In this document: piece after piece, positions 60,689 to 60,702 of the stretch
How the letters are laid out: each line of letters starts with the position of its first letter
How positions within the stretch are numbered: the first letter of the stretch is position 1
Source of the DNA: Escherichia coli
GTDB taxonomy: Bacteria; Pseudomonadota; Gammaproteobacteria; Enterobacterales; Enterobacteriaceae
Strand: one strand, 5' to 3'
Length of the DNA: 64,000 nucleotides
NCBI RefSeq assembly: GCF_003334785.1
Contig: NZ_QOWV01000010.1
Program-made: the position numbers and the translations under genes
Notes under the pieces: model-generated
What the model saw: the letters and a program-made list of their open reading frames with translations, nothing else
Told to the model about the DNA's origin: nothing
Databases searched by the model: none

Positions 60689-60702
60689 TTGATGTAAATC
60701 AA
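60689..60702 (-). promoter_or_regulatory. FNR box of the nirB promoter (TTGATttacATCAA)
   Basis: Perfect TTGAT-N4-ATCAA palindrome about 65 bp upstream of the nirB ATG. Confidence 0.8.

Follow-up and report, generated by a model that had tools for sequence, protein, structure and literature searches.

The site at positions 60689–60702 of the window (the whole 64,000-nucleotide stretch of E. coli DNA analyzed here) is, with a probability that we put at ca. 97%, the FNR operator of the nirBDC-cysG promoter, a class II activator-dependent σ70 promoter (pnir). The presence of an FNR site at nirB is already known, and the site is of value as a calibration point only: the initial annotation had proposed it as a well-known positive control, and it does match the published nir promoter, indicating that the motif reading of that annotation can be trusted in this window. 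The present analysis covers the sequence and geometry of the promoter, its identity with the K-12 counterpart, the identity of the genes it serves, and the conservation of the site and its spacing across genera.

A motif scan of the window revealed a single perfect match to TTGAT-N4-ATCAA, at exactly the coordinates initially given for it, with all 10 half-site positions agreeing with the consensus. The plus strand at 60689–60702 reads TTGATGTAAATCAA, while the minus strand, which is the sense strand of nirB, reads the reverse complement, TTGATTTACATCAA. The latter string had been quoted correctly, with the strand left unstated. The description of the site as a perfect palindrome holds for both half-sites and fails for the central four nucleotides, TTAC, which are not palindromic. 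The number of FNR motifs alone is not significant in 64 kb of DNA. One perfect match was observed against 0.18 expected, and 15 out of 100 dinucleotide-preserving shuffles contained at least one. Matches with no more than one mismatch numbered seven in the window against 2.3 expected, a count reached in one shuffle out of 100. The significance of the site comes from its context, i.e., from where it lies with respect to nirB, from the NarL/NarP site next to it, and from conservation across genera. The short operator is established by context and conservation, and not by motif count.

The gene downstream of the site is nirB, as had been proposed. Its coding sequence (58087–60630, minus strand, 847 amino acids) is the first of the nirBDC-cysG operon, and its product matches NF011565 over the full length with a score of 1872 bits; nirD follows at 57764–58090. 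Upstream of the promoter lie tsgA, which is co-directional, then ppiA and fic. A 341-nt region that includes the end of tsgA, the intergenic region, and the start of nirB is 100% identical to that of E. coli K-12 MG1655. Of the complete E. coli genomes, 5,425 of 5,426 contain it at an identity of at least 95%. The tsgA stop codon is immediately followed by a terminator-like hairpin, GCCGGACGGCACTATCGTCGTCCGGC (60858–60883, minus strand), and then CTTTTCC, some 200 nt before the start point of nirB; the hairpin lies between tsgA and the nir promoter and separates the two.

The window as a whole is collinear with the malT to pabA segment of MG1655, in an orientation reversed relative to NC_000913.3. 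Comparison with NC_000913.3 and NZ_CP032667.1 revealed 11 substitutions in 64 kb, together with a single deletion of 5 nt; the promoter contains none of these changes. Relative to MG1655, the substitutions are located at 482, 6247, 16823, 27899, 33389, 38311, 44976, 45493, 48248, 53763, and 59896 (the last within nirB), and the deletion (AATTC) follows position 43640, in the yhfY–yhfX intergenic region. The variants within a 5.1-kb stretch (43300–48400), which contains the deletion and three of the substitutions, are natural, since this stretch is 100% identical to that of natural strains such as ML35. From these comparisons, the window derives from a K-12-like natural E. coli strain, a very close relative of MG1655.

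The geometry of the promoter is that of a class II FNR promoter. According to PMC4216584, which cites the original mapping, nirB transcription starts 23/24 nt upstream of the ATG, which places the start at an A at position 60654 on the minus strand. The A of the nirB ATG is at 60630, 65.5 nt downstream of the center of the FNR site, and the center itself (60695.5) is found at −41.5 relative to the published start, or at −42.5 if transcription begins at 60653. The initial annotation had named a start point at a non-activating distance as the observation that could overturn its assignment to class II; the published start, 23/24 nt from the ATG, and the −41.5 listed in PMC3688515 both place the site where such an activator is expected. 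The −10 hexamer TAAGGT (60662–60667, minus strand; −13 to −8) is found at the computed position, is conserved in register, and has been reported to be essential for anaerobic activation (PMC4216584). The FNR region of the nir promoter spans −52 to −30 in the same report. The −35 region reads ATAAGC, leaving no usable −35 hexamer, and a consensus scan of 60500–61000 returned no consensus-type σ70 promoter, a result that is consistent with an activator-dependent promoter and provides no argument against a promoter being there. A Shine-Dalgarno sequence, GAGG (60636–60639, minus strand), is located 5 nt before the nirB ATG and is conserved in orthologues. The promoter combines the features expected of its class: a consensus repeat centered at about −41.5 from the published start, a −10 element with a poor −35, and conservation in orthologues.

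Upstream of the FNR site is a perfect NarL/NarP 7-2-7 site, TACCCATTAAGGAGTA (TACCCAT-TA-AGGAGTA; 60716–60731, minus strand). It is centered at 60723.5, i.e., at −69.5, the position at which NarL is centered on the nir promoter (PMC10853779). No other sequence in the window matches TACYYMTNNAKRRGTA (0.13 matches expected), even when one mismatch is allowed, and a repeat finder also picked up the site as an inverted repeat. The inverted TACYYMT heptamers, the 2-bp spacer, and the published position are those expected for co-regulation by NarL/NarP. Further upstream, a conserved block, AAATCAG (60737–60743, minus strand; −83 to −89), stands out in the conservation profile and coincides with the IHF site reported at −88 (PMC10853779); the block may be that site. 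The agreement of −41.5, TAAGGT, and −69.5 with the published nirB promoter bears out the comparison that the initial annotation had recommended as a check. An imperfect inverted repeat, TTGTCTGATATTT/AAAAAATAGACAA, with 13-nt arms that are 77% complementary and an 11-nt gap, is located at 60769–60805. This corresponds to a stretch from about −115 to −151 in pnir, for which upstream Fis and IHF sites have been reported.

Conservation of the promoter was studied by phylogenetic footprinting. Loci were anchored on a degenerate pattern that encodes part of the N-terminus of NirB (GNGMVGHRFIE), with one genome per species (120 loci); the use of coding sequence only avoids conditioning on the promoter, and 119 of the loci had enough upstream sequence. 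In E. coli, the FNR-site center is 92.5 nt upstream of the anchor. Perfect TTGAT-N4-ATCAA sites centered 91.5–104.5 nt upstream of the anchor were found in 80/119 loci, which are phylogenetically related and do not represent 80 independent events. Sixty-three of these sites were at 91.5 or 92.5 and ten at 104.5 (Aeromonas in every example inspected), and another 12 loci contained a site with one mismatch. At 41,587 other positions of the 400-nt upstream regions, no perfect site was found. The half-sites are fixed, while the central tetranucleotide takes 17 different values (TTGC in 36 loci, TTAC in 12, TTGT in 9, and others). Perfect sites cover Enterobacterales and Aeromonas, and sites with one or two mismatches are found in Vibrio and Photobacterium; loci that lack the site lie outside Enterobacterales and Aeromonas and include those of Thiomicrorhabdus, Cellvibrionales, Pirellulaceae, Enterovibrio, and Gilliamella.

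When 72 distinct enterobacterial promoters were lined up on the FNR site without gaps, their conservation profile revealed three further blocks conserved in fixed register: the −10 element TAAGGT, the NarL/NarP pair TACCnnTnAnGGGTA, and AAATCAG at −83 to −89. In representative sequences that range from Escherichia to Aeromonas, Vibrio, and Psychromonas, the spacings between the NarL/NarP and FNR sites and between the FNR site and the −10 element are retained, and the differences in promoter length between genera are located in the 5′ UTR. Half-sites that stay fixed while their neighbors vary are the signature of a functional operator. The cross-genus footprint may serve as a worked example, with invariant half-sites, a variable center, and fixed spacing to the −10 and NarL/NarP elements.

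Published data agree with this assignment. The start point, the in vivo occupancy by FNR, the dependence on FNR, and the interplay of NarL, IHF, and Fis were all taken from the literature. In an FNR ChIP-seq study, nirBDC-cysG is listed with one site at −41.5 and scored positive for both binding and FNR-dependent expression (Table 1 in PMC3688515); in the same study, 19 of the 23 directly activated promoters whose start is known have their FNR site at the class II position (−41.5 ± 4). The nirB gene is also among the targets in FNR ChIP-chip (PMC1802558), so the occupancy data that had been suggested as a further check support the site. The FNR binding site TTGATttacATCAA (nirB sense; 60689–60702, minus strand) is thus attested by the motif scan, by the ChIP-seq table, and by the 80 orthologous loci. 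Its center is ca. 20 bp from the ChIP-seq summit at 3,491,947, a value that is indicative only, as the comparison used the nirB start at 3,494,011 in NC_000913.3 and an assumed 1,977-bp length difference between genome versions. Expression of the nirB operon has been described as “totally dependent on FNR” (PMC4216584), and TTGATTTACATCAA was adopted as the FNR “consensus operator” for a library of synthetic promoters (PMC6263354).

Taken together, the promoter would be expected to function as follows. Without oxygen, dimeric [4Fe-4S] FNR would bind TTGAT-N4-ATCAA at −41.5, overlapping the −35 region. FNR would stand in for the missing −35 element and recruit RNA polymerase through contacts with the α subunit and σ70 region 4, such contacts being known for class II activators of the CRP/FNR family. 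Transcription from the weak −10 element, TAAGGT, would then begin 24 nt before the nirB ATG. Nitrate or nitrite would provide a second input, with phosphorylated NarL or NarP at −69.5 relieving the repression by IHF (−88) and Fis, such that FNR can activate. According to a structural study of NarL (PMC10853779), NarL at −69.5 clashes with and displaces IHF at −88, which removes Fis repression and enables activation by FNR.

Three other readings of the site were weighed, each of them very improbable. The palindrome could have arisen by chance and lack any regulatory function. A single perfect match in 64 kb would not be improbable by itself, as the shuffles demonstrate, and several one-mismatch matches within genes are probably due to chance. 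However, the site precedes the nirB ATG by 65.5 nt, at the published −41.5 and beside a unique NarL/NarP site; its half-sites are kept at an equal position in two thirds of the orthologous loci (80/119) while flanks and center vary, with none at the other positions searched; and it is occupied in published ChIP data. We consider a chance origin to be extremely unlikely. It is just as hard to credit that the site is mainly bound by CRP, an FNR paralogue that recognizes TGTGA-N6-TCACA. CRP and FNR sites have a 22-bp frame and the TGA...TCA core in common, and catabolite regulation of the nir operon has been reported. Against this, in the CRP frame the site reads TTTGA-N6-TCAAT, with three mismatches in ten positions, and the CRP core is not present. 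One of the mismatches is the G-to-T position, which discriminates FNR sites from CRP sites. Moreover, the orthologues keep TTGAT and ATCAA and none drifts toward TGTGA, and the catabolite effect reported at pnir is attributed to Cra, for which a half-operator-like sequence overlaps the −10 element (see below).

The site could also function as an operator for repression, or as the class I site of some other promoter that has not been mapped, such as a divergent or antisense one. FNR does repress some promoters, and the nirB start point used here is a published value. Yet the gene upstream, tsgA, points in the same direction, with a terminator-like hairpin at its end, and the opposite strand of the tsgA–nirB intergenic region contains no ORF and no Rfam family. 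Downstream of the site, the −10 element is conserved and keeps a fixed distance from it, and the published score for the operon is that of an activated one (PMC3688515). This last reading has, in our estimate, next to no chance of being correct, and the site remains best explained as the class II FNR operator of nirBDC-cysG. A riboswitch or small RNA reading of the nir upstream region found no support in an Rfam scan of 60400–61100, which gave no match on either strand at E-values up to 1.

The closest known system is the nir promoter of E. coli K-12 itself, studied by the Busby and Cole laboratories, with FNR at −41.5, NarL/NarP at −69.5, IHF at −88, and Fis upstream. This is the same promoter, with a 100% identical intergenic region; every published element is found at its published coordinate in the window, and the promoter contains no difference. 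The half-site consensus and the −41.5 position are shared with other class II FNR promoters, namely narG, dmsA, nrfA, narK, and ydfZ (PMC3688515), and at nrfA and narG, FNR is combined with NarL/NarP, as in pnir. In comparison with these promoters, the half-site pair of pnir is fully consensus, and NarL/NarP at pnir act from −69.5 by anti-repression, with no direct recruitment (PMC10853779). Class II CRP promoters, e.g., galP1 with CRP at −41.5, have the same architecture and activation logic, and their regulator belongs to a paralogous family (PMC10853779). They differ in having TGTGA in place of the TTGAT half-site of pnir, and cAMP as the effector in place of an oxygen-labile Fe-S cluster.

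Some elements around the invariant FNR core do vary. The center is TTAC in K-12 and Salmonella, and most Enterobacteriaceae have TTGC. Within Escherichia, there is also polymorphism in the left NarL/NarP heptamer: TACCCAT is present in the window and in K-12, E. coli SCPM-O-B-8794 has TACCACT, and E. albertii has CACCACT. All three carry the same FNR site. Variation of this kind could conceivably tune FNR affinity or nitrate/nitrite responsiveness between strains, a speculation that we regard as rather unlikely to hold. A lead concerning NsrR was also followed; a paper on nitric oxide in CFT073 makes no mention of the nirB promoter.

The remaining FNR-like matches in the window, each with one mismatch, differ in their context. 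Five 14-nt sites, at 13739 (feoB), 16812 (yhgF), 30426 (mrcA), 45443 (yhfW), and 63416 (fic), are located inside genes and are probably due to chance. The match at 16812 has a single mismatch only through a substitution at 16823 that is specific to this strain (MG1655 has A, the window C). Another site, TTGATGTGGCTCAA at 14673–14686, lies between yhgF and feoA and precedes the feoA ATG (14483, minus strand) by 196.5 nt. A peak at feoA has been found by FNR ChIP-seq, and feoABC is activated by FNR, with the effect masked by Fur (PMC3688515). The site is probably the known feoABC FNR site, and it is the only one of the one-mismatch matches with support in the literature.

A Cra (FruR)-like half-operator, GCTGAATCGTTAAG (60664–60677, minus strand), overlaps the −10 element of pnir. 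It agrees with RSTGAAWCSNTHHW at 13 of 14 positions and is moderately conserved in Enterobacteriaceae; a scan of the window with the exact Cra consensus gave no match at pnir. Tyson and colleagues reportedly described, in 1997, a Cra consensus and Cra-mediated catabolite regulation of pnir, and the Cra-like element agrees with this; it is a lead and not a finding. Exact matches to the Cra consensus occur elsewhere in the window, three in total against 0.47 expected. Two of them are located at 14747–14760, upstream of feoA, and at 58235–58248, inside nirB. The third, GGTGAATCGATACT at 22101–22114 on the minus strand, is ca. 280 nt upstream of pckA, a Cra-activated gene.
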